From the NCBI GenBank assembly GCA_017521005.1, contig JAFXEC010000015.1, positions 1,241 through 65,240 on the forward strand: a stretch of 64,000 nucleotides of DNA, read 5' to 3'. The DNA comes from Clostridia bacterium (GTDB lineage Bacteria > Bacillota > Clostridia > TANB77 > CAG-465). The first letter of the stretch is position 1. Every line of letters begins with the position of its first letter. Both the position numbers and the translations under genes were made by a program. Shown here piece after piece: positions 356-58,182 of this stretch. The notes beneath the pieces are model-generated. The model worked only from the letters and a program-made list of their open reading frames with translations. It was not told the DNA's origin and searched no databases.

Positions 356-526
356 TGCAACCTTCCTTTCCTTATAGATTTATTCTAAAAATTTATTAGA
401 ATACTAAATTTTTTACTGTTTGTATTATATCATACGATTTGGTAAAAAGTCAAGAAAATGGCTAGATATACGCAAAATATGACATTTTACTTTTCTCTTT
501 TAATGTATATTTTTATTGGTGGTTTT

Positions 527-1408: not shown

Positions 1409-1496
1409 CATATATTTCTTTTATTTCTCTAGTACAAAAATATACATTATTCTTTTTTATAATAATATATATTATCTGTAGATACGGAGGATACAT

Positions 1497-2006: not shown

Positions 2007-2014
2007 GAGGAAGT

Positions 2015-2209: not shown

Positions 2210-2217
2210 GTGGTAAT

Positions 2218-3747: not shown

Positions 3748-3748
3748 A

Positions 3749-4243
3749 ATGAAAGAATATATAACTACGTTGATATACATTTCGGTATTTAGTATTTTGC
3801 TAGAATTAGTAATTCCGTCAAGTAAACTTAAAAAATATATTTCAACTATTATATCTTTAGTTGTACTTATTTTGGTGCTTACGCCAGTTATTAATGTAGT
3901 AAAGGCCGAAAACATATTAGAGGTTTTAGCTGGAAGAGTAGATGAGATGAATTTTAATATAATAAACAGTTCTAAAGAATATGATGTTAATTTGTATAAC
4001 AATGAAAATATAAATAGTAGTGTCAAGAATAAAATAGAACAAGATATATATTATAATTGCAAGCAACAAGGTTTTGAGGTGATTATGGTTGATGTTACAT
4101 TAACTAATGAATATTTAATAACAGATGTGAATATATATGTTAGTAACATATCTAATGTGGATGCAGCAAAACAAATAATTAGATATGTAACCGAAACGTA
4201 TAACTTAAAGAAAAATTATATAAGTATTATAAAGGCGGAGTAA
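3749..4243 (+). CDS. spoIIIAF: Stage III sporulation protein AF
   Basis: A 164-aa protein with two N-terminal TM helices and a soluble ring-building-like domain, in the canonical position. Confidence 0.75.
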   Translation: MKEYITTLIYISVFSILLELVIPSSKLKKYISTIISLVVLILVLTPVINVVKAENILEVLAGRVDEMNFNIINSSKEYDVNLYNNENINSSVKNKIEQDIYYNCKQQGFEVIMVDVTLTNEYLITDVNIYVSNISNVDAAKQIIRYVTETYNLKKNYISIIKAE

Positions 4244-4246
4244 CAA

Positions 4247-4795
4247 ATGATGGATAAATTAAAAGAATTATTAAATAAAGATAAAAAGATGAGCAATCTA
4301 GTATTAATTGCAATATTACTCATAATTGTATTAATATCAACAGGATATATCTGGGGTGACGAAGAAAAACAGGTATCAAGTAATAATGTTTTAAGTAATA
4401 ACGGAAATAATATTCAGTTTAATGATGGGTATGATTTAGAAAAGAAACTATCTAATATAATATCCAAAATTGAAGGCGTAGAGTCTGCAGAGGTTATGAT
4501 AAGCTATTCTACTACCGAAAGAATAATTCCTGTATATGATGTAAAAGAAGACATTAATACGGTAAAAGAAAATGTTAAAGAAAGCACCAAGACCACTACA
4601 GAGAAGACAGTTGCGTATGAATCCAAGGATGGAAGCAAAATTGCTATCGTGGAGAGTAAAGAAACAGCTGCGGCAGTTGGTGCGATTGTTGTTGTTAGTG
4701 GAGAGGTATCGGATGATGTAAGTGAAGATATAAAAGAAGCAATATCTTTCGCTACAAGCGTACCAATACATAAAATACAAATATTTATAAATTAA
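4247..4795 (+). CDS. spoIIIAG: Stage III sporulation protein AG
   Basis: An N-terminal TM helix followed by the LSNIISKIEGVESAEVMISYS ring-building-motif region, in the canonical position. Confidence 0.8.
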   Translation: MMDKLKELLNKDKKMSNLVLIAILLIIVLISTGYIWGDEEKQVSSNNVLSNNGNNIQFNDGYDLEKKLSNIISKIEGVESAEVMISYSTTERIIPVYDVKEDINTVKENVKESTKTTTEKTVAYESKDGSKIAIVESKETAAAVGAIVVVSGEVSDDVSEDIKEAISFATSVPIHKIQIFIN

Positions 4796-4804
4796 GGAGA
4801 ATAT

Positions 4805-5362
4805 ATGAAATTGTTAAAAAGAAATCAGATGCTAATGTTATCTTTAGCTTTTATGGTTATGATAGCAGGATATATCAATTATAGATATGACCCTAAAAGA
4901 GAAGAAAATTTAGGAAGTACTGTAAAGGTGGATAGTAATAAAAATGTAAATGTATATTTAGAAACATTTACGGATAAAGATGAGAGTTTATATAAAGATA
5001 AGGAAGATAATGAGAAGAGCTTAGGAACTTTTAAATCGTCAAGAGATAATATGTTGTCTGAACTAGAAAGTACATATAAAGAACTTATTAGCGTAAATGT
5101 TAGCAGTAGTGAGATTAAAATATATAATGAAAAATTAGATGAAATAATTAAGAAGAAAAACCTAATAAAAATAGTTGAGGATATGATTAAGTTAAAAGGA
5201 ATAGAAGAAGTTGTAATAATTCCAAATGATGATTCATACAATGTAATGATAGGTAGTAAAAATGAACTTACAAAATCTCAAATCGCTATGATTGAAAAAC
5301 TTTTAATGGATGAATTTAATATAAATGCAGAAAAAATAAAAATTATTGTAAAAAGTAGTTGA
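4805..5362 (+). CDS. spoIIIAH: Stage III sporulation protein AH
   Basis: An N-terminal TM helix and a charged linker. The C-terminal domain (...GIEEVVIIPNDDSYNVMIGSK..LTKSQIAMIEKLL) is typical of SpoIIIAH. It is the last gene of the operon. Confidence 0.75.
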   Translation: MKLLKRNQMLMLSLAFMVMIAGYINYRYDPKREENLGSTVKVDSNKNVNVYLETFTDKDESLYKDKEDNEKSLGTFKSSRDNMLSELESTYKELISVNVSSSEIKIYNEKLDEIIKKKNLIKIVEDMIKLKGIEEVVIIPNDDSYNVMIGSKNELTKSQIAMIEKLLMDEFNINAEKIKIIVKSS

Positions 5363-5648: not shown

Positions 5649-5758
5649 AAGAGAAAAATAATATAATATGTACATAAAATAAACTGTAAATATATCTTAA
5701 AATACAGTTGAAATAAAATATAAAATGATATAGAATAAACTAAACAAGAGGTGGAAAA

Positions 5759-7453
5759 ATGGAAGAATTTTATAAGAAACTAGAGAAAGAGTATGGGATA
5801 GATAAAGAATCTTTTAAGAAACTTGCAGTAATAGGCGTTATAGCTCTTATACTTGCAGGTGTTGGTATATTTTGGCTGTTAGATTCTATGAAGGTAAAAA
5901 CATTACCATATAATGAATTGAAAGCCAAGGTAGAGAACCTTTGGAGTCAAGCAAAATCTAAGGGTGCTACAACAGAAGCAGATTATAGAAAATATATAAC
6001 AGATAGATTAACAAAAGTAAATTATAGACAATACGAACTTGATGTAACAACTAATGGCGTAGAGGTTATAGATAGAGTAGCAAGCTTAAATAAATATGGC
6101 TTCTTTTTTGATGTACCATATCAAATAATAATAACAAATAGTGATGGTATGTATACAAAATATGCAATAATATTCCATGAAGATGGAACGGCTGATACAT
6201 ACATTGCAAACGAAGAATCACAATACTACTTAGTATGTGATGCACTTCAAAACGAAAGGAACTTAAAATATGAAACCCGTTTCGTAAAACTAAATGGGTA
6301 CGATTTACAATTTTCAGCAGATGGATTTGATATAGTTATAACTAGAGTTCCAGAAGAAGGCGAAGAAATTAACGAAGAAGACATACCAAAGTATTCTGCA
6401 ACTGTAACATATGATCCTGATCATGGGATATTTAGAGAGTATGTTTATGCTGGCGTTGTAGATGATCTCCAAACTATGGTTGCATTAAGCGCAGCGGACA
6501 AATTAACAATAGTACAAGAAACTGGAACTAAAGAATTACAAATAAGAACAGATTGTGATGGACATAGAATTATATACGAAGGTAGCGTATATGCAACTGT
6601 TTCAATGGATGGCAAAACGCTTAAGATAGGAACAAATGTATTGCAAATACAAGAAACTCCATACACATATAATGTGGAACAACCAAAATATCCTGGAATG
6701 AAGGTTAAATTAGTAAACGGTTCTACTGTAGATAACTTAAAAGCTGGGAAACCAAAAACAGGGGATATAATCTTATATAACGATTATATGTATGTATGCA
6801 ATAAAAGATTTGAAAAAGACGAATGGGTTGTATTTAATGAAGATGAATCAAAACCACAATGGGGTGTGCAAGTACTAGGAACAGAGTATGAGTTAGTAGC
6901 GGATATGGAAGATGAAATATTTGGTGTGCCGGTTACTATGGTTACATATACATATGCGAATTGTACAATGTTAGCAGATGCACCTAAAATATCTACTAAT
7001 GCAAAAGATATGTCATTTGCATTTAGCTATTGTTCAAACCTTAAATATTCTCCAAGAATCCCTGAAGGCGTAAAAAATATGACTAATACATTTAGTGGAT
7101 GTAGTGCGATGAAAACAGCATCTGTTTTACCAACTGGAGTAACAACATTAGTTAAAACATTTGAAAAATGTTCGGGATTACTTAGCCCTGTTAAAATTCC
7201 GGAAAATGCAGAAGATATAACTTGCATGTACGATGGTTGCAAGATAATGACGGGTAGCCTAAAAATAGATTCCAACAAGATAGAAAAATACGATAGCTGT
7301 TTTGGAGGAACGGATGAATTAATAATACTTTCTGGAAAGTGTGAAGAAGAAAAATTAAGATTATATGCAGCTACTTCGGCTGGAAAAAATGTAAAACTTG
7401 CTTCAGACCCAGAAGTAGATACTGGTGATGGCTTTACAGAGATTAATCAATAG
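5759..7453 (+). CDS. Membrane-anchored surface protein with C-terminal BspA/DUF285-type leucine-rich repeats
   Basis: An N-terminal TM helix (aa 22-41). The C-terminus carries repeated units of about 22 aa: AKDMSFAFSYCSNL / VKNMTNTFSGCSAM / VTTLVKTFEKCSGL / AEDITCMYDGCKIM. Upstream promoter: TTGAAA, 17 nt, TAGAAT. A terminator follows at about 7466-7496. Confidence 0.6.
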   Translation: MEEFYKKLEKEYGIDKESFKKLAVIGVIALILAGVGIFWLLDSMKVKTLPYNELKAKVENLWSQAKSKGATTEADYRKYITDRLTKVNYRQYELDVTTNGVEVIDRVASLNKYGFFFDVPYQIIITNSDGMYTKYAIIFHEDGTADTYIANEESQYYLVCDALQNERNLKYETRFVKLNGYDLQFSADGFDIVITRVPEEGEEINEEDIPKYSATVTYDPDHGIFREYVYAGVVDDLQTMVALSAADKLTIVQETGTKELQIRTDCDGHRIIYEGSVYATVSMDGKTLKIGTNVLQIQETPYTYNVEQPKYPGMKVKLVNGSTVDNLKAGKPKTGDIILYNDYMYVCNKRFEKDEWVVFNEDESKPQWGVQVLGTEYELVADMEDEIFGVPVTMVTYTYANCTMLADAPKISTNAKDMSFAFSYCSNLKYSPRIPEGVKNMTNTFSGCSAMKTASVLPTGVTTLVKTFEKCSGLLSPVKIPENAEDITCMYDGCKIMTGSLKIDSNKIEKYDSCFGGTDELIILSGKCEEEKLRLYAATSAGKNVKLASDPEVDTGDGFTEINQ

Positions 7454-7632
7454 AAATTTAAATAATCAGAATAGAAATATTCTGGTTATTTTTTTAATAC
7501 AATTTAATATCAAAAGAATAGCTTAAAACAGTTGCAAAATAAGGTATTCTAATATATAATATGGTGAGTAAAATTATAACTTATAGTATAAATTAAAAGA
7601 TAAAAAATATAAATAAAAGGGAGGAAAATATT

Positions 7633-9024
7633 ATGCTAAAATTATACAATACATTAACTAGAAGCAAAGATGAGTTTATACCACTAGACAAAGAGACGGT
7701 TAAGATGTATTCATGTGGACCTACAGTATATAGCGAAGCTCACGTTGGAAACATGAGAGCATATATATTTATGGACACTCTAAGAAAAACTTTGAAATAT
7801 AACGGATACAAATTAAATCACGTAATGAATATAACAGATGTTGGACATATGACATCTGATGCTGATGAAGGCGAAGACAAAATGGAAAAAGCAGCAAGAG
7901 AAACTAAAAGAAATCCATTAGATATTGCCAAAGAATATACAGATAAGTTTTTAAGAGATATAGATAAATTAAATATAGAAAGACCAGAACATATAACACC
8001 AGCTACAGAACATATAAGAGAAATGGAAGCTTATGTTAAGAGAATAATGGATAATGGTTATGCTTATGAAACATCAAAAGGTATCTATTTTGATACTTCT
8101 AAACTTCCATCATATGGCGAACTTTCTAGAGTAAACCTAGAAAAACAAATGGCCGGTGCAAGAATTGAAGTGGATGAAGAAAAGAGAAATCCATTAGATT
8201 TCGCATTATGGATTAAAGCACCAGAAAATCACATTATGAAATGGGATAGTATTTGGGGAATCTGCTATCCAGGTTGGCATATTGAATGCTGTGCTATGAG
8301 CAACAAATACTTGGGCGAGAAATTTGATATCCATACAGGTGGAGTAGACCATATTCCAATTCACCACGAAAACGAAATAGCACAAGCTAAAGGTGCTACA
8401 GGTAAGAATCCTGCAAACTATTGGATACACAATGAATTCTTACTTATGGATGGTGGAAAGATGTCTAAGAGTTTAGGCAACTGCTATACAGTAACTACAA
8501 TTGAAGAAAGAGGTTATGAACCACTTTCATATAGATATCTAAACTTCACATCACATTATAGAAATAAATTAAACTATACATGGGAAGGAATAGATGCAGC
8601 TCAAACTTCACTTAACAGACTACGTGAAAACTATAAAGAACATGTAAACGGAACTGGTACTGTAGATGAAACAGAAATAGCAAGATTAGAACAAGAATTC
8701 TTAGATGCAATAAATGATGATATGAACATGCCAGCAGCTTTAGCAGTAGTATGGGAAATAGCAAAGAATAACAATCGTTCTAAAGATTATGCTAAACTAC
8801 TAGATAAATTTGATACAGTATTATCTTTAGGAATTGATAGAGAGCCTTTCAAAAAGGAAGAAACAATTGAAATTAACGATGAAATAGAAGAATTACTTGA
8901 AAGAAGAAAACAAGCAAGACTAAATAAAGACTTTAAAACATCTGATGAAATAAGAGATGAATTATTAAGTCTAGGATATAAAGTAATAGACACAAAAGAA
9001 GGACAAAAGATAGAAAAAGTTTAA
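7633..9024 (+). CDS. cysS: Cysteine--tRNA ligase
   Basis: A HIGH-type motif (HVGNMRAY), KMSKS ([10 protein letters not shown]), the zinc-binding CYPGWHIEC segment and a length of 463 aa. Confidence 0.95.
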
Positions 9025-9035
9025 GGAGGAAAAAC

Positions 9036-10091
9036 ATGCCTATATTAGATAGAGCTAATAAGGATGAAGTAGAAAAGTACAACAGCTTTGTTAGAAACAG
9101 GGAACATACAAGTGCACTTCAAGATTTAAATTGGGGTAAGGTAAAAGAAGGTGAGTGGGAACAGGAGGCCGTTTATTTAGAGCAAAACGGCAACATCACT
9201 GCCGCAATGATGATATTAATACGTAAGTTTGCTAAAGGAATTAGCATTATGTATGCACCACGTGGCCCTGTTTGTGACATAGAGGATGTATCAACAGTAA
9301 AAAAACTTATAGAAGAAGCAAAACCACTAGCAAAGAAATATAATGCTTTTGTACTTAAAATGGATCCAGAAGCAATATATACAGAAAAACTAGAAGGTAT
9401 GTATAAAAAATCTGGCTTCAAAGTTAGAAATAAAGATAAACATAAACACGAGTTTATTCAACCAATATATAATATGATAATCCGTATGGGCACTAAAACT
9501 GAAGAAGAAATATTTAAAGGTTACAGTGAAAAAACTAGATACAACATACGTGTTGCGGAGAAAAAGGGTGTAACAGTAAGATGGTCTAGAGATCCTAAAG
9601 ATATTGAAATTTTCCACGAGTTATCTGAAATAACTGCAACAAGAGATAAAATATCTTTAAGAAGCAAGGAATATTATATGCGTATGCTTGAAGCATATGA
9701 TGAGGAGCACTTAAGAATATATGTAGCAGAACATGAGGGCGAACCTCTATCTGCAGCTATAGCATTAAACTATGGTGGTAAGTTATTCTACATTTATGGA
9801 GCAAGCTCAAATGAAAAACGTAATCTAATGCCAAACTATCTAATGCAACAAACAATGATTAGATGGGCTTTAGAAACGGGTTGTACAGAATATGACTTTG
9901 GTGGCGTTTTTGAGATGGACAAGTCTAATGGATTATATAGATTCAAAGAAGGTTTCTGCCATCAAGAAGGTGTTACAAAGTTTATTGGTGAAATAGATCA
10001 TGTATACAAGAAAAGTGTATATTTTGCTTTTGTACATCTTTTACCAATATACAAGAAGCTTAGAGGATTACTTAAAAAGAGAAATAAATAA
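9036..10091 (+). CDS. FemAB-family peptidoglycan interpeptide-bridge aminoacyltransferase
   Basis: A 351-aa protein with the motifs YAPRGPV, YSEKTRYNIR, YGASSNE.RNLMPNYL and YDFGG that are typical of FemX/FemAB (lipid II aminoacyl transferase). Confidence 0.8.
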   Translation: MPILDRANKDEVEKYNSFVRNREHTSALQDLNWGKVKEGEWEQEAVYLEQNGNITAAMMILIRKFAKGISIMYAPRGPVCDIEDVSTVKKLIEEAKPLAKKYNAFVLKMDPEAIYTEKLEGMYKKSGFKVRNKDKHKHEFIQPIYNMIIRMGTKTEEEIFKGYSEKTRYNIRVAEKKGVTVRWSRDPKDIEIFHELSEITATRDKISLRSKEYYMRMLEAYDEEHLRIYVAEHEGEPLSAAIALNYGGKLFYIYGASSNEKRNLMPNYLMQQTMIRWALETGCTEYDFGGVFEMDKSNGLYRFKEGFCHQEGVTKFIGEIDHVYKKSVYFAFVHLLPIYKKLRGLLKKRNK

Positions 10092-10133
10092 CAATAATTA
10101 AATAAAAAATAACAAAGAAGGAGGTAAATACAT

Positions 10134-10472
10134 ATGGTACATCAAATGAGATTACAAGATTCACCTTTTAACAGTATTAAAGCTGGAACAAAGGATATAG
10201 AAATGAGACTATATGATGAAAAAAGAAGAGCAATAAAGCCAGGAGATATAATTGAATTTACTAATATAGTAACTGACGAAAAGATATCCGCAGAAGTATA
10301 TGCATTACATATTTTTGCAACATTTAAAGATATGTATTTAGCTTTTGATAAAACAAGACTAGGATATGCTGAAAGCGAAATTGCACATCCAACAGATATG
10401 GCTAAGTTTTATCCTGAAGAAGAAATTAAAGAATTTAATGTAGTTGGAATTGAGATAAGATTAATTAAATAA
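10134..10472 (+). CDS. ASCH domain protein
   Basis: A 112-aa protein. The segment PFNSIKAGTKDIEMRLYDEKRRAIKPGDII is an ASCH-like beta-barrel signature. Confidence 0.55.
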   Translation: MVHQMRLQDSPFNSIKAGTKDIEMRLYDEKRRAIKPGDIIEFTNIVTDEKISAEVYALHIFATFKDMYLAFDKTRLGYAESEIAHPTDMAKFYPEEEIKEFNVVGIEIRLIK

Positions 10473-10504
10473 CAATAAACAAATGTAAGATAAGAGGAAT
10501 ATAA

Positions 10505-12688
10505 ATGGTACTAATAGGAAAGGTTTCGCAAATTATATATAAAAATGAAAGCAATGGATATACTGTCTTTTTGATGAAATCAGAAGGGGAGTATGTTACT
10601 GCTGTAGGTGAAACTGGTGCCATTGAACCTGGTGACGAATATGAACTAGATGGAGAATTTACTTATCATAAATCTTATGGAGAACAATTTGCATTTAAGA
10701 CAATTACTAAAGTATTACCAAGTGATGCTACTGCTTTAATAGAATATATAGCTAAAAGTGGTATAAAAGGAATTGGTAAGAAGACGGCAGAAAAGGTAAT
10801 AAAAATATATGGTGATGATGCTTTAGAAGTTATTAGATACAAGCCAGATTTATTAATGGATATTAAAGGATTTAATGATGAAAAAGCGTATGCCTTAAGC
10901 GAATATATAAATGATGAATGGGAAAGGTTTAACTTAACATCATTCTTAAGTAAACACGGCATTGGAATTAATATGGCTATGAAAATATATGATGCTTTAG
11001 GGATTAATGCAGTAAACATTATAAAAGAAAATCCATATGCATTAATGGATTTTGTAGCTAATCTAGATTTCAAAACTACTGATGCGCTTGCAACAAGTTT
11101 AAATATAGATGCTACACATCCAGACAGGGTAAAAGCTGGGATTATATATATTCTTACTTGGTATATTCGCGAAGGACATACTAATATAGAAAAGGACTTG
11201 CTTTTAGACAATGCAGAAAGACTACTTGGTGTATCGTCTGTACATATAGAAGCAGCTTTAGAAAATCTAAAACACAAAGATAAAGTTGTAATAGAACCTA
11301 GAGATGAAAAAGAATATGTGTATAGAAAAAGCATGTATATAGCAGAGCTTAACATTGCTAGAAAAATAATCGAACTTACAAAGAAACCAACGCTTAATAT
11401 TAAATTAGATAAAGATATAGAAAAGGTGTCTGAAGCACAAAGTATTGTACTTTCAGATACACAAAAAGAAGCTGTAAAGACAGCAATAAAGAATAATATT
11501 TCTGTAATAACAGGAGGACCTGGTACAGGTAAGACTACAATAATTAAGTGTGTTATAGACATACTTAAAAAACGTGGACAAGACTATGTACTTGCAGCAC
11601 CAACTGGAAGGGCAGCTAAGCGTATAACAGAAACAACAAGGGAAGAAGCCAAAACATTACATAGACTTCTAGAAATAACAAAGATAGAAGATACAGATAT
11701 AGATACATTTGTTAATTTCCCTGTATCTGTAATAGATAAGGATGTATTAATTATAGATGAAGCGTCTATGATAGATACAATACTTATGAACAATGTAATG
11801 AAAGCTTTATCTGATCATACAAAACTAATAATAGTTGGAGATAGTGATCAATTACCATCTGTAGGTGCGGGTAATGTGCTTAAAGATATAATTAATTCAA
11901 ATGTAGTAAACACAGTTTGTTTAACAGAAATATATAGACAAAGTGCAAAGAGCGATATAATAATGGGTGCGCATAGTGTTAAAGCAGGTGAACACATTAG
12001 TTTTAAATCTAAAGCCACAGATTTATATTATATCGAAACAAACAGCGTAGAAGAAACTAAAAAGGAATTAGAGAGCCTTTTAACTCACAGAATAAAGAAT
12101 TTCTTTGGTGAGGATTTGGCCTTAAATACGCAGGTTATAACGCCAATAAAGAAGACTGAAATAGGTACACATGAACTTAATAAATTAATTCAAGGAATAA
12201 CACTAAATCCTAATGATGAAATGCGTCATAGAAAAGTTGGAGATAGAGTATTCTATGAAAATGATAAAGTAATGCAAGTAAAAAACAATTATGATATTAA
12301 TTGGGACTTAGAAGGTGTACAAGGTACAGGTATATACAATGGAGACATTGGATATATAGAAACAATAAATGCAAAAGATGAATATTTAATAGTAGACTTT
12401 GACGGAAAGAAAACAAGATATGACTTTGATGAACTTGACCAGTTAGAACATGCTTACGCGGTAACAGTACATAAGAGTCAAGGAAGCGAATTTGATGCTG
12501 TTATAATTCCGTTATATGTATGTTTTGAAAAACTATTTAACCGTAATTTGATATATACAGCTATGACTAGAGCGAAAAGACTTTTAATATTTATTGGAAG
12601 GCGCTCTGTTATAGATTATATGATAGATAATACTAATGAAAAGGCTAGAACAACTGGCTTAAAATACAAAATCGAGATTTTAATGTAG
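10505..12688 (+). CDS. recD2: ATP-dependent RecD2-type (SF1B) DNA helicase
   Basis: A 727-aa protein with the typical RecD2 N-terminus (IYKNESNGYTVF). It also has helix-hairpin-helix repeats, Walker A (GGPGTGKTT), Walker B (LIIDEASM) and C-terminal VHKSQGSEF. Confidence 0.9.
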   Translation: MVLIGKVSQIIYKNESNGYTVFLMKSEGEYVTAVGETGAIEPGDEYELDGEFTYHKSYGEQFAFKTITKVLPSDATALIEYIAKSGIKGIGKKTAEKVIKIYGDDALEVIRYKPDLLMDIKGFNDEKAYALSEYINDEWERFNLTSFLSKHGIGINMAMKIYDALGINAVNIIKENPYALMDFVANLDFKTTDALATSLNIDATHPDRVKAGIIYILTWYIREGHTNIEKDLLLDNAERLLGVSSVHIEAALENLKHKDKVVIEPRDEKEYVYRKSMYIAELNIARKIIELTKKPTLNIKLDKDIEKVSEAQSIVLSDTQKEAVKTAIKNNISVITGGPGTGKTTIIKCVIDILKKRGQDYVLAAPTGRAAKRITETTREEAKTLHRLLEITKIEDTDIDTFVNFPVSVIDKDVLIIDEASMIDTILMNNVMKALSDHTKLIIVGDSDQLPSVGAGNVLKDIINSNVVNTVCLTEIYRQSAKSDIIMGAHSVKAGEHISFKSKATDLYYIETNSVEETKKELESLLTHRIKNFFGEDLALNTQVITPIKKTEIGTHELNKLIQGITLNPNDEMRHRKVGDRVFYENDKVMQVKNNYDINWDLEGVQGTGIYNGDIGYIETINAKDEYLIVDFDGKKTRYDFDELDQLEHAYAVTVHKSQGSEFDAVIIPLYVCFEKLFNRNLIYTAMTRAKRLLIFIGRRSVIDYMIDNTNEKARTTGLKYKIEILM

Positions 12689-12701: not shown

Positions 12702-14654
12702 ATGAAAGAGTTAGTAGAAAGTATTGAAAATTATATAAGAAAGCCATATACAGATTACGCTGTTATGATAAATGGTGAATGGGGTAGTGGTAAAACACAC
12801 TTTTGGAATAATAAGTTAAGACAAAGAATAGAAAATATAGCAAATGCTGAAGGAAAGAGATATAAAACTATATATATTTCATTATATGGTATTAATAGTA
12901 TTGAGGAAATAAGTAAAAAGATATTCTTAGAAACAAACCCAATGATATCTAAATCACTTAAAAAGTTTGTAGATGATTCAGACGGAAATGTAATACCAGA
13001 ATATGTTAAAACAGGTATAGACATAGCTAACCTTTATGGTGCTATGCACACAAATACTCAAATGGACTTTTCTAAGGCGTTTTCAACAGACGATAAGGTT
13101 TTATGTTTTGACGATCTTGAAAGAGCAAATATAGACATTATAGATATATTAGGATATATAAATAACTTTGTTGAACATGATGGAATTAAAACAATCCTTA
13201 TTTGTAATGAAAAAGAACTTGCCACTAAGTTTAAGAATAATAATATAGAAATGAAAACATTAATAGCAACTATGCTTCTAAAGGAAGAAGGAGCTATTAA
13301 CGATGAAGATAAATTAGAACCATTTGTAAACAAACTAGATTCTAAGATAAAAAGCATTTTTGATAGAACAAATGCCTATGAAAGAATTAAAGAAAAATTA
13401 ATAGGTGAATGTTTTGAATATATGCCAGAATATACATATATATTAAATGGTATGATAATGAAGTATGAATACGATTTATCTTTATCTAAATTCTTAAAAG
13501 AAGAAATTTCTACAATAATAGCTACATTTAATAAGACAAATACAAAGAACCTAAGAGTATTAAAACATGCATTAAATGATTTTGAAAGAATATTCTCGGC
13601 AGTAAAGGATGCATATCCAGAAACTCCAAGAGAAACTTTAAGAACATTATTAATGTTCACTATAGCAGTTTCTTTTGAAATAAAAGTTGGTAGTGAAGTA
13701 AAACAAATATTCTCGGATGTAGAGTCTAATGAAGAATATCAATCATACATTTATACATCAAGTTTGATGAATGATCAAAAAGGATATTATCTTCGTGAAT
13801 TCGATACAAGATATTTCTTAAATTCAAAAGAAGAATATAGATTCTTCAAGTTTGTAGAAGTATATGTAAGAAAAAGAATATTTGATGAAAAAGTATTTGG
13901 TGCTAATATGAAGGAAATGTTAAATCAAAAAGCAGATAAACGCTCTGATCCAAACTATATGAAGCTACTTACAGGTGCATATTGGAAACTATCCGATTTT
14001 GATTTTAGCATACTAAGAGAACAAGTATTATATGATATTAAAGAGGGGAACGTTCCATCTAAAGACTACGTTAAAGTATTTGCAGTATATAAATACCTAA
14101 ATGACATGCAAATAATAACAGTAGATATGAGTGATGTAAAATCTAAGTTTACTACAGGATATAAATTAGCGCTAACAAATGAAGCTAGATACAAAATAGA
14201 TTTAGATTCTGTAAATGTAGATGTAGATGCAGAAGATGCATTAGTACAAGAATTTGCTGAAGAATGTAGAAAAGCAAAGGATGTAATATATGATGAATGT
14301 ATTCGTGAAAAGGTAGGATATCTATTCAAGAATCTTGTAGATAACATAGACGAATTCTATAAGCAAATGATAGGACCATATTCAACAATACCTGTATTTG
14401 CAAAATATGAAATGTCTGTGCTTTATGATAGACTAAGAGATGTTAAGAATAATGACCTATACAATATAGTAAGTATTATGAGCACAAGATATGATGACAA
14501 AGAAGAGCTTCTAAAACAAGATAAAGCAAATCTTAAGAAATTAACTGAAATAATAGATGAGAAAGCAGATACATTTGGAAGCACTATTAAGAGAGCATTA
14601 ATTAAAAATTTAAGCGCGGAAATTAAAAAAGTATTAAAGAGATTAGAAGAATAA
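12702..14654 (+). CDS. KAP-family P-loop NTPase (soluble, no TM insert seen)
   Basis: Walker A INGEWGSGKTHFWN and Walker B-like VLCFDDLERA (the KAP DDLDR signature). It starts 13 nt after the recD2 stop, with a GGGGGG RBS and no intervening terminator. Confidence 0.65.
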   Translation: MKELVESIENYIRKPYTDYAVMINGEWGSGKTHFWNNKLRQRIENIANAEGKRYKTIYISLYGINSIEEISKKIFLETNPMISKSLKKFVDDSDGNVIPEYVKTGIDIANLYGAMHTNTQMDFSKAFSTDDKVLCFDDLERANIDIIDILGYINNFVEHDGIKTILICNEKELATKFKNNNIEMKTLIATMLLKEEGAINDEDKLEPFVNKLDSKIKSIFDRTNAYERIKEKLIGECFEYMPEYTYILNGMIMKYEYDLSLSKFLKEEISTIIATFNKTNTKNLRVLKHALNDFERIFSAVKDAYPETPRETLRTLLMFTIAVSFEIKVGSEVKQIFSDVESNEEYQSYIYTSSLMNDQKGYYLREFDTRYFLNSKEEYRFFKFVEVYVRKRIFDEKVFGANMKEMLNQKADKRSDPNYMKLLTGAYWKLSDFDFSILREQVLYDIKEGNVPSKDYVKVFAVYKYLNDMQIITVDMSDVKSKFTTGYKLALTNEARYKIDLDSVNVDVDAEDALVQEFAEECRKAKDVIYDECIREKVGYLFKNLVDNIDEFYKQMIGPYSTIPVFAKYEMSVLYDRLRDVKNNDLYNIVSIMSTRYDDKEELLKQDKANLKKLTEIIDEKADTFGSTIKRALIKNLSAEIKKVLKRLEE

Positions 14655-14710
14655 TAAGTTCAAAATAAGGAGGTGGGTAGAAATATTCACTTCTTTTGTT
14701 ATATATATAC

Positions 14711-14739
14711 TTGAATAAAAATAAGAAATGTAATAATAT
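14711..14739 (+). promoter_or_regulatory. Promoter of pilin-like paralog 1 (shared family architecture)
   Basis: TTGAAT, a 17-nt spacer, TAATAT, followed by ATTTGTGTAG. This is the same layout as at 16248 and 20906. Confidence 0.55.
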
Positions 14740-14766
14740 ATTTGTGTAGGGAAAAGAGGTAAACAA

Positions 14767-16194
14767 ATGAGAAATAAAAAAGGAATAAGTTTGATTGTTT
14801 TAGTAATAACAATTATAGTTATGGTAATACTAGCAGCAAGCGTAGTAATTACACTATCTAATACGGGAATAATAGATAGAGCTAATCATGCAGTGCAATT
14901 AACAGACGAAAAACAAGTGCAAGATTTAGCAGCTATGTTATGGGCTGAAACCTATCTAGATCCATCAAAAAAAGATGATATAGAGAATGTTGTAAAACAA
15001 GAATTGGCAGAACAAGGCATAACTGAAGATAAGTGGAATATAGAAATTTCAAACACTGGAATTACTATAACTGCCAAAGGAAATGAAACGGATGACAATC
15101 AAGGAAATGATTCGGAAGGTGATTCTGAAAGCAGTTCCGGAAGTGATTCAGGAAATAATATTGTAGTAAATGTTACTAGTTCTACATTAAGTGAGGATTA
15201 TTTCGAGTTAGAAAGTTATGATCCTGAAACAATAACTTTCACAATTACCACTCAGTTAGAAAAATCTGTAGAAAATGAAAAGGTTAAATTAAAATATAGT
15301 TTCTATGATTTGTCGTCATCAGGAGAATATACACATTTGTCAGATGAAGATGTTGAAATAGAAACTACGGATAAGACCATAGCTACTGAAAAAAGTTTAA
15401 TTGTACAAGAGGAACAAAATATAAGAGTATGTTTACAAGTATTAGATATGTCTAATAGAGAATTGGCAACATATAATATAGATACATATAAATTATCAAA
15501 TGGTGCGACATATAGCTTAAGCACATATGCAATTTGTGTACCTGCAGGAACACTAATTCTTGTAGAAGTAGAAGAAGAGGATGAAAACGGTAATAAGAAA
15601 AAGAGAAGAAAACAAAAGAAAATCGAAGATTTAACATATGATGATAATATAGTGGTATGGGATTTTGATAATGGATGTTTCTCAACAGCTAAGCCAATTT
15701 GGTTGAAGAAAACAGAATTTGCTGATGAATATAATGAATTAACATTTAGCAATGGTTCAGTTCTTAGAACTATAAGAGAGCACAGAATATTTAATAAAGA
15801 ATTAGGTAAGTTTACATATCCAATGGGAGAAGAAACAAATATTGGAACAACAACATTTACAGCAGATGGAGAAGAAGTTAAGCTTGTAAATAGAAGAGTA
15901 GTAGATGAAAAAATAGACTATTACAATGTTATAACAAATTATCATATAAATGCTTTCGCAGATGGTATATTAACATCATGTAGATTAAGTAATTTATATG
16001 ATATTAAAGATATGAAATATGTAAAAGATGATAGAGAGATAGTTGGAATAGATAAATTTAAAGATATTCCAGAGGAATATTATTATGGTTTAAGATTAGG
16101 CGAACAAAGAAGAGATGTTAATAACAAAGGAGACTTTAGTGATCTTAAATCTTGGACAGAATATGTAAATAGACTTATCAGTAAAAAGAAATAG
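14767..16194 (+). CDS. Pilin-like N-terminus protein with acidic Ser/Asp linker and C-terminal Hint (bacterial intein-like) domain
   Basis: The N-terminus is MRNKKG|ISLIVLVITIIVMVILAASVVITLSNTGIIDRA. The Hint blocks are CVPAGTLILV (Cys257 at 15535-15537), TIREHRIF and NVITNYHINAFADGILTSC (to 15981). A hairpin terminator lies at about 16209-16238. Confidence 0.7.
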   Translation: MRNKKGISLIVLVITIIVMVILAASVVITLSNTGIIDRANHAVQLTDEKQVQDLAAMLWAETYLDPSKKDDIENVVKQELAEQGITEDKWNIEISNTGITITAKGNETDDNQGNDSEGDSESSSGSDSGNNIVVNVTSSTLSEDYFELESYDPETITFTITTQLEKSVENEKVKLKYSFYDLSSSGEYTHLSDEDVEIETTDKTIATEKSLIVQEEQNIRVCLQVLDMSNRELATYNIDTYKLSNGATYSLSTYAICVPAGTLILVEVEEEDENGNKKKRRKQKKIEDLTYDDNIVVWDFDNGCFSTAKPIWLKKTEFADEYNELTFSNGSVLRTIREHRIFNKELGKFTYPMGEETNIGTTTFTADGEEVKLVNRRVVDEKIDYYNVITNYHINAFADGILTSCRLSNLYDIKDMKYVKDDREIVGIDKFKDIPEEYYYGLRLGEQRRDVNNKGDFSDLKSWTEYVNRLISKKK

Positions 16195-16247
16195 TATGAT
16201 ATAGAAGGGGTACATGTGTAAAATATGTACTTCTTTTTATATAACTA

Positions 16248-16276
16248 TTGAACAATGTTCAAATATATAATAATAT
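16248..16276 (+). promoter_or_regulatory. Promoter of pilin-like paralog 2
   Basis: TTGAAC, a 17-nt spacer, TAATAT, then AGTTGTATAT. Confidence 0.5.
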
Positions 16277-16302
16277 AGTTGTATATACAAAGAGGTAAAC
16301 AT

Positions 16303-17283
16303 ATGAAAAACAAGCAAGGAATAAGTTTAATAGTTTTAAGTATAACAATACTTGTAATGGCAATACTTGCAGCAACAGCAATAATTGCACTAGAAGATAG
16401 TGGAATAATAAAAAGAAGTAAAGATACTGTAACTGGTAATAATTATGCGGATGAAATGACCAGATTAATTGTAATAAAAAACGGAATACTTACAGATAAT
16501 TTGGGCGAAATAACAGTCGAAGAATATATTACAGAATTAACTAACAAAGGCCTAATAGAAACAGGAAGAACAAACAACGCAGATGGAAGTATAACGGTAA
16601 CCACAAAAACTGGCTTTGAAGTAATAATATCTCAAAACGGAACGAGTGATTTAACTTTAGAAATAGAAGGATACACACCTCCAACTGTTGCAAATGGCGG
16701 TAATAATAGTGGAAATGCTGGAAGCAATGGAGACGGCAATGTTGCAAATGGTCTTCCGGGAGAGGGCGAAAAAGTGCTAGACGGATTTAAAATAGCTATG
16801 GATGAGTATTTTTGGGGTGAGACAGTTCAAATAGAAGATTCGGATAAGTATAATGCGGCAAATCCAATGCAACCTATATATGACAGCATGCAAACTTTCG
16901 AGTATGATGCAAATATGACATGGAGGCAATGGGTGAATTCATCATATAACACATATGGATATAAAATATTGGTTGCTGATGGAGCATCGGGAGGATATTC
17001 AGGAGAATCTATAGTAACAAGTGATTCGAGGAGTACGCTAGGATGTCAAGTACAAATTTCTAGTTTAGTTATATATTATAATGATGCTGCTTGTACACAA
17101 TTAGCTACGGACGAGGAATATATAGTATATCACGGAAAGATATGTACCGCGCAAATTGGACTATTTGATTTAGACACAAAAATTGAAGATACTCTTAATT
17201 CAATGGTTGTAACTGTAACACCATTTTATAATATATATGAAAAAAGATTGCCTTTTTTTGTATTCGGATATTATGAGGATTAA
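16303..17283 (+). CDS. Pilin-like N-terminus protein, paralog 2 (Gly/Asn-rich linker, unknown C-terminal domain)
   Basis: MKNKQG|ISLIVLSITILVMAILAATAIIALEDSGIIKRS. ATG 16303 follows the RBS AGAGGT; the ORF-track start at 16279 is unlikely to be the true start. Confidence 0.65.
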   Translation: MKNKQGISLIVLSITILVMAILAATAIIALEDSGIIKRSKDTVTGNNYADEMTRLIVIKNGILTDNLGEITVEEYITELTNKGLIETGRTNNADGSITVTTKTGFEVIISQNGTSDLTLEIEGYTPPTVANGGNNSGNAGSNGDGNVANGLPGEGEKVLDGFKIAMDEYFWGETVQIEDSDKYNAANPMQPIYDSMQTFEYDANMTWRQWVNSSYNTYGYKILVADGASGGYSGESIVTSDSRSTLGCQVQISSLVIYYNDAACTQLATDEEYIVYHGKICTAQIGLFDLDTKIEDTLNSMVVTVTPFYNIYEKRLPFFVFGYYED

Positions 17284-17328
17284 TATATGTAAAATAAACA
17301 CTAGTTTTGTCAAATGGTGACATAATAT

Positions 17329-17357
17329 TTGCATTTTGTAATACATTGTGGTATAAT
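17329..17357 (+). promoter_or_regulatory. Extended -10 promoter of the 96-aa GC-rich ORF
   Basis: TTGCAT, a 17-nt spacer, TATAAT, with TGg immediately upstream of the -10. Confidence 0.5.
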
Positions 17358-17399
17358 ACATAAGTTGTTAAAATAAAATTTATAGAAAGGGGCCTAACT

Positions 17400-17690
17400 A
17401 TGACCACATGTGTTGCTAACCAGTTGGAAGCAAAAAGAGAAACAGTAGTGTTCCGCAATATGGTGGATGCACGCTTAGTAAAGTATGACGAAATTCATGA
17501 ATTGCAAGATGGTTACTTCAAAGTCTTAAAAAAAGGATCGTGGGGCGTAATCACGGAGAGTGGCGAAGAAGTATTTCCTTGTTCTGCATCTACAATTTAT
17601 TATGTAGAAAACGGCAGAGTTATTTGCGGCATGGATGATGACGTCTACTCAATTGAGCTTAAGAAAGCTAAAAAGGATTTGGAAGGATAA
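17400..17690 (+). CDS. Small protein with a single WG-type repeat (KKGSWGVITESGEEVFP); GC-rich patch
   Basis: An ORF with RBS AAAGGGG and its own promoter. A 12-bp hairpin terminator (17671-17702) overlaps the stop codon. Codon usage is unlike that of its neighbours. Confidence 0.45.
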   Translation: MTTCVANQLEAKRETVVFRNMVDARLVKYDEIHELQDGYFKVLKKGSWGVITESGEEVFPCSASTIYYVENGRVICGMDDDVYSIELKKAKKDLEG

Positions 17691-17776: not shown

Positions 17777-18313
17777 ATGAAATCTACAGGAATGATAAGA
17801 AAGATAGATGACTTGGGTAGAATAGTAATACCTAAAGAAATACGTAAAACATTAAAGATAAGAGAAGGTGACTCGTTAGAAATATATATAGAAGGGGATA
17901 GAATACTGCTTAATAGATATGCACCTTTAGGTGATTTTATAGAGGATATAGTTGCACTAAGCGAAAGCGTTTCTAATAATACCGATTCTAATATTTGTAT
18001 TACAGATACTAAACAAGTAGTAATTGCTACTGGATATTTAGAAAAAGAATATTTATATAAAGATATAAGTAAAGAGTTATTAGAAAAAATGGATGAAAGA
18101 ATTTTATGGCAGAACAAAGGTGGAAATAAGATTAAAATTATAGAAAACGAAAATTTATCTAAAGATGTTAATCAAGTTATTATGCCAATAATATATGAAG
18201 GAAGTGTACTAGGAGCAGTTATACTTTTAACAAATGATGTAAATAAAAAAATAACTGAAACAGAATTAAAGTTAGTAAAAGTTATAGCAGATTACTTGGC
18301 AAGTAGAATGTAG
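17777..18313 (+). CDS. spoVT: Stage V sporulation protein T (AbrB-type N-domain plus GAF-like C-domain)
   Basis: The sequence TGMIRKIDDLGRIVIPKEIRKTLKIREGDSLEIY is the SpoVT/AbrB swapped-hairpin signature. The length of 178 aa is typical. Confidence 0.9.
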   Translation: MKSTGMIRKIDDLGRIVIPKEIRKTLKIREGDSLEIYIEGDRILLNRYAPLGDFIEDIVALSESVSNNTDSNICITDTKQVVIATGYLEKEYLYKDISKELLEKMDERILWQNKGGNKIKIIENENLSKDVNQVIMPIIYEGSVLGAVILLTNDVNKKITETELKLVKVIADYLASRM

Positions 18314-20905: not shown

Positions 20906-20934
20906 TTGAAAAATATTTAAATATATAATAATAT
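20906..20934 (+). promoter_or_regulatory. Promoter of pilin-like paralog 3
   Basis: TTGAAA, a 17-nt spacer, TAATAT, then ATTTGTGTAG. The -10 and the downstream 10 nt are identical to paralog 1. Confidence 0.55.
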
Positions 20935-20973
20935 ATTTGTGTAGATTAATTAAACAAAGGAGGAATGAGAAAG

Positions 20974-21999
20974 ATGCAAAAGAAACAAGGTATATCCTTA
21001 ATAGTTTTAGTCATTACAATAATAGTAATGATAATCTTAGCAGCATCTGTAGTAATTACACTAAGTAATACTGGTGTAATAGATAGAGCAAGTCAAGCAG
21101 TAGATTTAACAAATGAGTCTCAAGTACAAGATTTAGCTGCATTAACATGGGCAGATGCCTATATGGACAATCTAAGAGGTCAAAACCTAATAGATGAAGT
21201 AACAACAAAATTAGCAGAACAAGGAGTAACAACAGATGACTGGAATATAACAGTAACAGATACAGGAGTAAGTGTTACAAATAAAAACTCTGCATCAGGT
21301 ACTGGTTTAGGTTCGCTAATAACAGCAGATAATTATGGAGACACAGTAGATTATACTGTAACAGTAAATGGAACTACATATGATGATTGGCAAATATATT
21401 ATCATAATAGCGACTATGTATATCTAATAGCAGCAGAATCAATAGGAGGTACAACATTAGACAATGGAACAACAGTAGCAAGCCTAACGACAGATGAATT
21501 AGCGTTATACGAAAAATTCAGAGTAGGAGATGCAGATAAGTATACATTAGTAGATACAGTAAGTGGAAATACAGCATATAATTCGAAAGCAGTAGCACAA
21601 TTAATAAAAGACTATGCAAACTTTGCAAATACAGAGGCATATGGAACAAATGTAGTTGGAGCAATAGGAGGACCTACAATAGAATTACTAGCAGCAGGAT
21701 GGAATGCAACAGGAAAAACACCAACAATGGCACTAACAACAGACACATATGGCTATAAAATAAACAATGCCACTTATGTATCAATAACAAGTGATGGATT
21801 ATATGTACCGTCAAATTACTATTACTGGTTGGCGTCTCCGTCTGCTAACTACTATGACATTGTTTTGGATGTGGGCTCTGGCCGTGTGGGCAGCGGCTCC
21901 TATGACGGTTCTGGCGACGTTCGTCCCGTAGTTTGTCTAAAATCTAGTATCCCTGCCACAGTGGGAACAGGAGATTATGATTTTAGTTTAACAAAATAA
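20974..21999 (+). CDS. Pilin-like N-terminus protein, paralog 3, with C-terminal WLASP...VRPVVCL module
   Basis: MQKKQG|ISLIVLVITIIVMIILAASVVITLSNTGVIDRA. ATG 20974 is better spaced from the GGAGG than 20965. The last roughly 170 nt are GC-rich and adenine-poor. Confidence 0.65.
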   Translation: MQKKQGISLIVLVITIIVMIILAASVVITLSNTGVIDRASQAVDLTNESQVQDLAALTWADAYMDNLRGQNLIDEVTTKLAEQGVTTDDWNITVTDTGVSVTNKNSASGTGLGSLITADNYGDTVDYTVTVNGTTYDDWQIYYHNSDYVYLIAAESIGGTTLDNGTTVASLTTDELALYEKFRVGDADKYTLVDTVSGNTAYNSKAVAQLIKDYANFANTEAYGTNVVGAIGGPTIELLAAGWNATGKTPTMALTTDTYGYKINNATYVSITSDGLYVPSNYYYWLASPSANYYDIVLDVGSGRVGSGSYDGSGDVRPVVCLKSSIPATVGTGDYDFSLTK

Positions 22000-57075: not shown

Positions 57076-58182
57076 ATGAAAAGAAAACAAGGAATATCAT
57101 TAATAGTATTGGTAATTACAATAATAGTAATGATAATATTAGCGGCTGCCGTAGTTATTACATTAAATAACACAGGAATAATTGGCAGAGCAAACGAAGC
57201 GGTTGACGCGACAAACTACAAACAAGTAGAACAATTAGCAAATTTAATTTGGTCTGAAGAGTTTTTAGCAGGAAAAAGGGACCAAGCATTAAAAGATTCT
57301 GTATTAGAAAAATTAGAGGATTATAAAGATAAATATGAATTTGAAGTAAATAATGGTGGTGTAACAGTAACATTACCAGGTGCTGTAAAACTAGTAAAAA
57401 ATGAATATGGATTCTATTTTGATAAATTATATTTAACTAATAGTTTAACAAGTGTATCAGGGAACCCAGTACTAGGTTATGCGTTTTTTGAGAATGGAAC
57501 ATATGTGGGATATACTATAAATGTTACAGAAACAGGAGAAGTATTAGTAGTTGCTGGAACATATGGAACAGTAGATGGATATGCTGATTTGAGTGCAAAC
57601 ATTTCGGGTGTAGCTAATTTTACATTCTCTGAGGATGGAAAAACTATAACAAATTCAACTCCTTACACAATGACAATGATGGAAAAAGAAACTGTTACAG
57701 GAATTAAATATGGTGTAGAATATATAGATGGTACAGATAAATTAACGATTGATGCTACTGGTAAAGTTGCAACATATTATAATGGGAACCTTATGTCAGA
57801 AAGTGTATATAACGTGCTTTGTGATAAACATGTATACACATATGGCGGTGGTTCTGGTGCAAGAAAGATATCAGTGTCTCCATTTGGAGAAGATTTAATA
57901 TTCCAAACAGCAGGAAGATATAATTATGCAAGAAAAACAAGCTCAGCTAAAGTTGGCGCATATCTTGGCTCAACATATGTTGATGAAGATGGTAATGAAT
58001 TAGTGCTAAAATCTGATGGAACAATAACCATTACTGGTGCAACACCATACAGTTCTACATACACATATATGGATACAGCTAACATGTATGTAGATGGTAA
58101 TGGAACAGACAGTTATATACCATTATTATCTGGTAAAGCGATAGCTTGTTCTAAAACAGGAAAGATGTTTGTACTTAAATAA
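57076..58182 (+). CDS. Pilin-like N-terminus protein, paralog 4 (Gly/Thr/Tyr-rich C-terminal domain)
   Basis: MKRKQG|ISLIVLVITIIVMIILAAAVVITLNNTGIIGRA. It has a GGAGG RBS 12 nt after the GT2 stop and no promoter of its own. Confidence 0.65.
   Translation: MKRKQGISLIVLVITIIVMIILAAAVVITLNNTGIIGRANEAVDATNYKQVEQLANLIWSEEFLAGKRDQALKDSVLEKLEDYKDKYEFEVNNGGVTVTLPGAVKLVKNEYGFYFDKLYLTNSLTSVSGNPVLGYAFFENGTYVGYTINVTETGEVLVVAGTYGTVDGYADLSANISGVANFTFSEDGKTITNSTPYTMTMMEKETVTGIKYGVEYIDGTDKLTIDATGKVATYYNGNLMSESVYNVLCDKHVYTYGGGSGARKISVSPFGEDLIFQTAGRYNYARKTSSAKVGAYLGSTYVDEDGNELVLKSDGTITITGATPYSSTYTYMDTANMYVDGNGTDSYIPLLSGKAIACSKTGKMFVLK

Follow-up and report, generated by a model that had tools for sequence, protein, structure and literature searches.

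Four genes dispersed along a 64,000-nucleotide stretch of the Clostridia contig JAFXEC010000015.1 (hereafter the window, part of an uncultured, spore-forming metagenome-assembled genome (MAG) with a GC content of ~30%) encode proteins whose N-terminus is also that of pilins in a pilus operon of close relatives. We consider it probable, at roughly 0.6, that they belong to a modular type IV pilin-like family of minor pilins displayed by an atypical type IV pilus (T4P) in a lineage of ~30% GC spore-forming gut Clostridia. Each protein would start with a short basic leader whose last residue is Gly, continue with a nearly invariant hydrophobic helix corresponding to pilin alpha1-N (ISLIVLVITIIVMIILAA...) and a carrier module of ~70 further residues, and end in a grafted head that varies widely. 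The four coding sequences (CDS), first proposed from the DNA letters by a model (the first-pass annotation) to start at 14767, 16303, 20974 and 57076, are all present on the + strand with the same gene calls in public assemblies, and a six-frame motif scan combined with tblastn found exactly four copies of the family motif in the window.

The shared N-terminal module and the pil operon of close relatives

The four proteins have in common the start M-[KRQ]-x-K-[KQ]-G and, after it, ISLIVL(V/S)ITI(I/L)VM.ILAA, and nearly all of the 25 invariant columns in the four-copy alignment fall within residues 1-38 (M1, K4, G6, I7, S8, L9, I10, V11, L12, I14, T15, I16, V18, M19, I21, L22, A23, A24, I28, L30, G34, I36 and R38). 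The hydrophobic sequence ISLIVLVITIIVMIILAASVVITL comes directly after the Gly and lies in a helix that spans residues 5-32 in an AlphaFold2 (AF2) model, as expected of the ~20-residue hydrophobic alpha1-N segment of a pilin. Paralogs 1, 3 and 4 are 54-63% identical over their first 100 residues, reaching '...KLAEQG.T.DKWNI.V.NTG.', so that the conserved stretch, initially put at 55-60 residues, is in fact longer (~95-100 aa); paralog 2 shares ~40 aa strongly, as had been claimed. At the DNA level, 5-11 of 16-19 identical codon positions differ in the codon used between window copies, and across 107 family members 37% of identical residues are encoded by differing codons, with Ser+2 specified by both TCN and AGY. 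Because identical residues use different codons, we reject recent duplication or gene conversion as the source of the shared sequence; the near-identical N-terminus is evidently kept by protein-level (purifying) selection.

The family is large and dispersed around the chromosome. Scanning a single genome for each species turned up 333 relatives, of which the top 80 all belong to five MAGs, and the sampled loci of these five related MAGs (~1.3 Mb, about a tenth of each genome) hold 111-112 unique members, that is, at least 14-24 per MAG, with lengths from ~100 to 729 aa. Their leaders follow the pattern M[KQR]x0-3K[KQ]G, and Gly-1 is present in 111/111 members as well as in the four window copies; Ser+2 is nearly as constant (110/111). 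An N-terminal profile run against 1.84 billion cluster representatives matched 14,987 of them at E<=1e-3, 1,126 at E<=1e-10 and 114 at E<=1e-30; in each of the 150 matches listed, the module lies at the protein N-terminus, the proteins having 93-853 aa. Paralog 3 has 1103 homologues, some of them automatically named 'type II secretion system protein', PulG or PilE. The short N-terminal query returned mostly fragments from the protein database and was helpful solely for locating small operon pilins, and tblastn did not find the module in plasmid or phage collections.

The evidence for a link with pili comes from the genomes closest to the window. The window is collinear with loci of JAZSJJ and JAFXHJ at 92-96% nucleotide identity, and these two genomes are therefore congeneric, near-conspecific with it. 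At the extreme end of a JAZSJJ contig (L035), a phmmer search with E. coli HofC and GspF seeds revealed a PilC homologue with a family member directly after it; when this PilC was used as the query, it led to a metagenome contig with a complete pilus operon (L080), and the same operon is present in L081, L084/L085 and L086. L084/L085 (JAFXHJ) and L035 (JAZSJJ) are syntenic with the window, and L080, L081 and L086 represent more distant relatives. In L084, from a sheep-rectum MAG (JAFXHJ, GCA_017536445.1), the order is yabP-yqfD-ybeY-dagK; a 338-aa minor pilin (MKKG followed by ITVISL...); Asp23; a PilM/N-like fusion; a PilO-like protein; a 116-aa transmembrane protein; a 128-aa pilin (MKKG followed by ISLIVLVITIIVMIIIAGAIIISL...); a PilD-like protein; pilins of 144 and 58 aa; PilB, PilT and PilC; a family member (MQKKKG followed by the family sequence given above); and then Asp23-nusB-xseA. 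Pfam supports PilB (T2SSE, 5.6e-98, plus MshEN), PilT (T2SSE, 8e-35) and PilC (T2SSF), and the matches for PilN (0.004) and PilO (0.008) are weak. The Walker A motif of the lineage's PilB is APTGEGKTT, and a GPTGSGK regular expression missed this protein. In all relatives examined, Asp23-family genes are conserved both within the pil operon and directly behind it.

The operon's small putative major pilin starts MKKGISLIVLVITIIVMIII, and the 128-aa pilin in the operon order of the syntenic relatives reads MKKGISLIVLVITIIVMIIIAGA...; the small operon pilin matches all four window N-termini at E=1e-13 to 1e-14 (1e-4 for paralog 2), and its first 15 mature residues are those of the family. Because the operon pilin has the same N-terminus, the family handle is the alpha1-N of the lineage's own T4P pilins. 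The first-pass annotation had read the leader-Gly-hydrophobic N-terminus as a prepilin-like handle on variable heads, and this reading gains support from the pil operon, both through the shared pilin N-terminus and through the family member directly after pilC. It had also made its idea depend on an assembly ATPase; one is encoded in the pil operon of the close relatives, the evidence coming from these and not from the window's own genome.

The operon's PilD-like protein (264-307 aa) is unusual in that it matches A24_N_bact (PF06750, 3.9e-29), the N-terminal, methylase-type domain, alone. All 120 listed homologues, down to 43% identity, contain PF06750 and none contains PF01478 (Peptidase_A24). 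The zinc/methylase loop has four invariant Cys, and the position of the first catalytic Asp is occupied by Ser, Asn or Glu in some members. Past a Lys-rich linker, the protein carries a canonical Gly-1/Glu+5 motif (KK.G, then A(I/L)(N/S).(E/D)I..A..IF) followed by ~100 residues, and this is the only place in the sampled DNA where a class III motif with an acidic +5 residue was found. When the C-terminal part was modeled by AF2, a 50-residue helix and a four-stranded sheet were obtained (mean predicted local distance difference test score (pLDDT) 86.5), for which the best PDB matches are the GspI-type minor pseudopilins XcpV and EpsI (probability 0.95-0.96, TM-score 0.59-0.67, E ~0.5). The protein thus joins a methylase domain to a GspI-like pseudopilin, the protease domain having gone. 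An intact methylase-type domain together with the retention of Gly-1 would argue for a peptidase acting in trans.

Direct comparison of the family with known pilins is suggestive rather than conclusive. A profile of the four sequences, run against PDB sequences, aligned with the leader Gly in register to MshA (E=0.019), to archaellin 5z1l (E=0.19) and to geopilin, and hhalign likewise aligned the N-termini of E. coli PpdD and GspG-K in register (P=4e-4).

Variable heads, their exchange and their upstream regions

Beyond the shared module, the C-terminal parts of the four proteins are mutually unrelated when compared by BLASTP, as originally noted. Most heads among 104 family members scanned have no Pfam match; those that do comprise DUF6273 (10 members), BspA-type LRR_5 (7), LRR_8 and beta-helix, all heads of adhesin type, and DUF285. 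The 'Hint domain' assigned to paralog 1 could not be recovered, as the isolated segment has no Pfam match at E<=10 and no PDB sequence match, and the resemblance remains at the level of motifs alone (C-VPAGT..., ...HINAFADGILT). A 564-aa protein encoded elsewhere in the window has a weak BspA-type LRR match and an ordinary internal N-terminal transmembrane segment instead of the family handle; thus, a head of this type can also exist apart from the pilin module.

The AF2 model of paralog 3, built with 83 homologues (mean pLDDT 88.3), separates the two parts of the protein. The helix at residues 5-32 leads into a low-confidence hinge (29-42, containing the conserved SNTG.I.RA), helices at 48-64 and 69-82 and a hairpin at 90-103, and the head (112-341) is a separate domain with pLDDT >90. 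As modeled, the carrier is minimal: helix, hinge, alpha1-C helix, helix and two-stranded hairpin. The module of paralog 1, whose secondary structure is assigned by analogy with this model, begins with six leader residues, the last of them Gly; a hydrophobic helix (~24 residues) would follow, then an amphipathic one, a short third helix and a hairpin. With a module of ~100 aa, dissimilar heads and two separate AF2 domains, the family has the plan of modular pilins, in which an unrelated module is grafted onto a pilin module. A Foldseek search with the whole paralog 3 model gave no significant PDB match; the weak top matches are C-type-lectin-like folds (Legionella Lcl-C and NKR-P1, E about 0.2), and the head is possibly C-type-lectin-like. 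The Pfam match of this head to DUF6273 is weak (E=0.0045; up to 3e-15 in other family members), and in BFVD, a collection of predicted viral structures, it matches DUF6273/DUF1566 proteins of gut phages (E=1e-4 to 1e-3), a modeled likeness that would be consistent with a ligand-binding module.

Comparison with the near-identical genomes identifies the paralog 1/2 locus as a replacement hot spot (window 15041-17480 versus L020:7322-9192 and L048:5844-6728) between flanks that are 92-94% identical. Identity with the JAZSJJ and JAFXHJ loci ends at window position 15041/15060, which is the module boundary of paralog 1; past it, JAZSJJ has a different head and JAFXHJ has one different gene in place of paralogs 1 and 2. 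Orthologues of paralogs 2 and 4 are 96% and 73% identical, respectively (Table 1). The gene directly before paralog 1 encodes a KAP-family P-loop NTPase, with a terminator-like hairpin between the two.

Paralogs 1-3 are preceded, ~15-30 nt upstream of the ribosome-binding site, by a common box (TATAATAATATA[T/G]TTGT[G/A]TA) that may act as a promoter; a generic promoter scan of the AT-rich window did not rise above chance. Paralog 4 has no such box and directly follows the gene for a family-2 glycosyltransferase, which is present as two overlapping open reading frames (ORFs). The split may come from a frameshift or from an error in the assembly, or the gene may be a pseudogene. On either side of it lie large polytopic membrane proteins for which Pfam gives no match, a similar glycosyltransferase and polytopic pair lies near the pil locus in L035, and a role of these proteins in surface or pilin glycosylation is possible. 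For paralog 3, an alternative start at ATG 20965 was rejected as too near the ribosome-binding site.

In the relatives, about a quarter of the family members, and 0/4 of the window copies, are preceded by a conserved 5' leader of ~200 nt. Within it, a short ORF, M(I)KNAESLAAV(HT)n, whose variable (AC)n tract is 7-25 nt long, is followed by two elements made up of a hairpin and a T-run; the second of these lies immediately ahead of the ribosome-binding site. The length of the tract sets the frame: the leader ORF ends short of the first hairpin in 5 copies, within it in 5, and within the second hairpin in 11. The leader has no match to an Rfam family, and from its sequence it looks like a phase-variable, translation-coupled attenuator.

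The remainder of the window includes sporulation genes (the spoIIIA operon and SpoVT) and encodes LonC, TsaE/B and DnaG. No tRNA, rRNA or Rfam family was detected at threshold across the 64 kb, nor did the region ahead of cysS (7633), a plausible site for a T-box, yield one.

Table 1. Positions of the family genes, their parts and associated features in the window and in loci of related genomes
Sequence	Feature	Position	Strand	Description
Window	spoIIIAA-AH operon	458-5362		Sporulation
Window	SpoIIIAA	458-1408		Part of the sporulation spoIIIA operon
Window	LRR protein	5759-7453		564 aa
Window	KAP-family P-loop NTPase gene	12702-14654		650 aa
Window	Terminator-like hairpin	14667-14696
Window	Promoter-like box, paralog 1	14729..14749	+	TGTAATAATATATTTGTGTAG; read from sequence
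Window	Paralog 1 CDS	14767..16194	+	475 aa; leader MRNKKG, then ISLIVLVITIIVMVILAASVVITL; N-terminus matched by the L084 putative major pilin, E=3e-14
Window	Paralog 1 N-terminal pilin-like module	14767..15060	+	~98 aa; from alignment and identity break in relatives
Window	Paralog 1 variable head	15061..16194	+	BLASTP matches itself alone; unique among sampled loci
Window	Promoter-like box, paralog 2	16263-16287
Window	Paralog 2 CDS	16303..17283	+	326 aa; leader MKNKQG, then ISLIVLSITILVMAILAATAIIAL; most divergent module; head with no Pfam match
Window	SpoVT	17777-18313		Sporulation
Window	Promoter-like box, paralog 3	20921-20944
Window	Paralog 3 CDS	20974..21999	+	341 aa; ATG ~10 nt past AGGAGG
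Window	Paralog 3 head	21307..21999	+	Residues ~112-341; confidently modeled globular domain, DUF6273/DUF1566 type
Window	Polytopic membrane protein	55022-56383
Window	Family-2 glycosyltransferase	56367-57063		ORFs 56367-56771 and 56716-57063
Window	Paralog 4 CDS	57076..58182	+	368 aa; leader MKRKQG, then ISLIVLVITIIVMIILAAAVVITL; Thr/Gly/Tyr-rich head with no family match
Window	Polytopic membrane protein	58303-59565
L020 (JAZSJJ)	Paralog 2 orthologue	8215-9192
L072	Paralog 4 orthologue	10001-11104
L084	PilD-like protein	10001-10828
L080	PilD-like protein	5680-6498
L081	PilD-like protein	10489-11292
L086	PilD-like protein	2701-3540
L084	Asp23-family genes	6059-6487; 16494-17042
L080	Asp23-family gene	1770-2213
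L035	Asp23-family gene	2513-3061
L035	Glycosyltransferase and polytopic pair	6882-9288
L038	5' leader	9780-10000
L045, L031, L012, L058	5' leader	Upstream of L045:10001, L031:10001, L012:2577 and L058:5770		Also at ~20 other sites

The pilin reading and its alternatives

If the family members are minor pilins, their route to the surface can be sketched. A newly made protein would be inserted into the membrane through its N-terminal helix, as expected from its sequence, and would be recognized by a machine resembling that of type IVa pili (T4aP) via the alpha1-N that it has in common with the major pilin, a sharing and a linkage to PilB, PilT and PilC that are observed in the relatives. The leader would be removed after Gly by a peptidase encoded outside the operon, and the new N-terminus methylated by the PilD-like N-domain; membrane insertion with loss of a leader of 3-6 residues and extraction by PilB and PilC would deliver the protein to the filament. 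By analogy with the modular pilins PilB and PilC of Streptococcus sanguinis, it would be incorporated at the tip or in the shaft of the pilus, showing one of the alternative adhesive heads.

Several observations weigh against this reading. The Phe/Met+1 and Glu+5 of the type IV pilin signal are absent, their places being taken by Ile (106/111 members) and Val (108/111). Hidden Markov models (HMMs) do not see the prepilin character that the first-pass annotation had proposed: even with the threshold at E<=1, no N_methyl (PF07963/TIGR02532), Flp or archaellin model matches any of the four proteins, and none of the 104 members scanned matches an N_methyl model. Against Pfam and NCBIfam, the four show no more than weak TadF matches (E=0.003), and the Flp/Tad pattern, Gly followed by xxxxEY, does not apply, there being no Glu-Tyr at +5/+6. 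A 100-sequence family profile scores solved pilins at E ~1 only, a weaker result than with the four-sequence profile, because it is specific for Ser2/Val5. The modeled carrier does not appear to be the classical alpha-helix and four-stranded sheet, and has no significant fold match in the PDB. The PilD homologue has no peptidase domain and its first catalytic Asp is not conserved; phmmer with GspO and GxGD-type motifs detected no A24 peptidase in the loci sampled, which, with ~10% of each genome covered, is not evidence of absence. Cleavage of the leader after Gly is accordingly a prediction. As the first-pass annotation stated, the window itself contains no PilB, PilC, PilD or PilT homologue (phmmer and tblastn, E. 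coli and lineage-specific seeds); the only distant relative there is SpoIIIAA, and the operon evidence comes from close relatives. The pilus role in this lineage is a prediction.

A bolder version of the pilin reading, which we put forward only tentatively and hold to be doubtful as a whole, is that a widespread clade of uncultured gut Clostridia would use a re-engineered bacterial T4P: all free pilins would have lost Phe1/Glu5, the protease of the bifunctional peptidase would be split off or lost, its methylase would be joined to the one pseudopilin with Glu5 (GspI-like), and the filament would act as a scaffold displaying dozens of interchangeable modular pilins per genome, many of them individually turned on and off by a phase-variable attenuator with an (AC)n leader peptide, and with heads swapped by recombination at the module boundary.

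The handle could instead serve a machine that displays or releases functional proteins at the surface, in the manner of a bindosome or of secretion through the short pseudopilus of a type II secretion system (T2SS), with the family members not being pilus subunits at all. There is a precedent in the Sulfolobus 'bindosome', whose sugar-binding proteins reportedly carry class III signals (in the work of Albers and Szabo), and the presence of so many paralogs per genome with enzyme- or binder-like heads would suit such a role, as would the lack in every pilin-like protein of Glu5, which canonical systems need for polymerization (PMC10191384). However, the identity of the first 15 mature residues with those of the small operon pilin is what would be expected of co-polymerizing subunits, the PilT retraction ATPase and the PilM/N/O-like proteins point to dynamic pili, and the conserved ~100-aa carrier suits the modular-pilin plan, so that we regard display or release without a pilus as unlikely.

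It is also improbable that the four are uncleaved signal anchors, that is, type II membrane proteins whose likeness to pilins is incidental or vestigial and whose helix is conserved for some other purpose, for instance oligomerization or contact with a partner in the membrane. The points in favor are the peptidase-less PilD homologue, the lack of an A24 enzyme in the sampled DNA, the missing Phe1 and Glu5 and the silence of the N_methyl HMMs. An anchor would not account for a Gly-1 that is universal and preceded by Lys or Gln as in prepilins, nor for a residue-by-residue conservation of the helix that exceeds the needs of hydrophobicity, and the same sequence heads pilin genes within the pil operon; moreover, keeping the four-Cys methylase domain would be sensible only if a new N-terminus arises (PMC10191384).

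A Sec signal peptide, cut by signal peptidase I (SPase I) between ...IILAA and S to release the heads in soluble form, would explain the basic n-region, the hydrophobic core and 'LAA' as an acceptable -3/-1 motif, but we judge it very unlikely: the hydrophobic stretch runs at least six conserved residues past 'LAA' (SVVITL) to give a helix of ~24-28 residues, canonical pilins carry the same 'GILAA' without being SPase I substrates (as in the MshA and geopilin alignment), signal peptides are not normally 95% identical across paralogs with unrelated mature parts, and the genes are linked to pil genes.

Least credible is a class III system acquired from archaea, with FlaI/FlaJ-like machinery and a methylase-less peptidase of the PibD, FlaK or TadV type; although Ile+1, the lack of Glu5 and the in-register archaellin match recall archaeal pilins, and a stand-alone A24 peptidase (none found in the sampled DNA) would complement the peptidase-less PilD, the machine is bacterial and T4aP-like (PilB with MshEN, PilT, PilC, PilN/PilO-like proteins), the bacterial A24_N_bact domain is retained, MshA scores above the archaellin, and the spacing 'GxSLIxLxxxIxxxxILAA' equals that of bacterial T4a pilins residue for residue. 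An archaeal origin was thus rejected on machinery content, and with it the initial description of the N-terminus as 'archaeal rather than bacterial'. In all free pilins of the system, the putative major pilin among them, Ile1/Val5 stand where Phe1/Glu5 would be, and this marks instead a derived, non-canonical bacterial T4P.

Relation to known filaments and implications

The modular-pilin concept and the display of such pilins at the tip are established (PMC8179133, PMC9934059). The closest counterparts are the modular PilB and PilC of S. sanguinis, which likewise combine a small N-terminal pilin module with a bulky grafted head, belong to a monoderm T4P with PilB, PilT and PilC, and are displayed on the filament, the role predicted for the window family too (Raynaud et al. 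2021, PMC8179133; PMC9934059). A genome with known modular pilins has one to a few of them, each with a canonical class III signal (IPR012902, Glu5); the family described here, by contrast, lacks Phe1 and Glu5, escapes the N_methyl models, has its many members dispersed, and differs in its heads between near-identical strains.

Canonical T4a pilins and T2SS pseudopilins (PilA, PilE, MshA, PulG) agree with the family in leader length, in Gly-1, in a helix of ~24 residues with ...ILAA... aligned in register, and in the accompanying PilB/PilT/PilC and PilM/N/O-like machinery; they differ in having Phe or Met rather than Ile at +1 and Glu rather than Val at +5, in being recognized by N_methyl models, and in a cognate PilD that retains its peptidase. 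The absence of Glu5 is itself a feature of K-type tip pilins (GspK/PilX/PilK and S. sanguinis PilA), as can be seen from E. coli GspK, where ...RG is followed by VALLIVLMLL and the family has ISLIVLVITI after its Gly. Such subunits are thought to be incorporated first, capping the filament (PMC10191384, PMC9934059). Yet in known systems only one subunit, the tip-capping K or S. sanguinis PilA, lacks Glu5 (PMC10191384, PMC9934059), whereas here every free pilin does, the putative major pilin among them, and a T2SSK-domain match was seen neither in the four proteins nor in the 104 members scanned. Archaeal class III proteins (archaellins, Aap/Ups pilins and Sulfolobus bindosome proteins) also lack Glu5, vary at +1 and place many functions on one class III handle, but work with FlaI/FlaJ-type ATPases and platforms and methylase-less PibD/FlaK peptidases, in contrast to the bacterial machine and PilD N-domain found here. 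The searchable literature, consulted for the sequence motif, for a peptidase-less PilD and for major pilins without Glu5, contained no account of such a system.

A Glu5-bearing class III signal together with a bifunctional PilD defines type IV filaments, and genome surveys rely on the N_methyl/IPR012902 signature. The family is invisible to that signature, yet it has ~15,000 cluster representatives in metagenomes, and the pilin repertoires of gut Clostridia have therefore probably been strongly under-counted. If these pili do assemble with no Glu5 and a peptidase that is split or missing, this would bear on the purpose of Glu5 and N-methylation and on how subunits dock. Dozens of adhesin-headed modular pilins per small genome would also constitute an unusually large surface-variation system for a gut commensal, and the swapping of heads at the strain level, together with possibly phase-variable leaders, would be relevant to colonization, to phage receptors and to interaction with the host.

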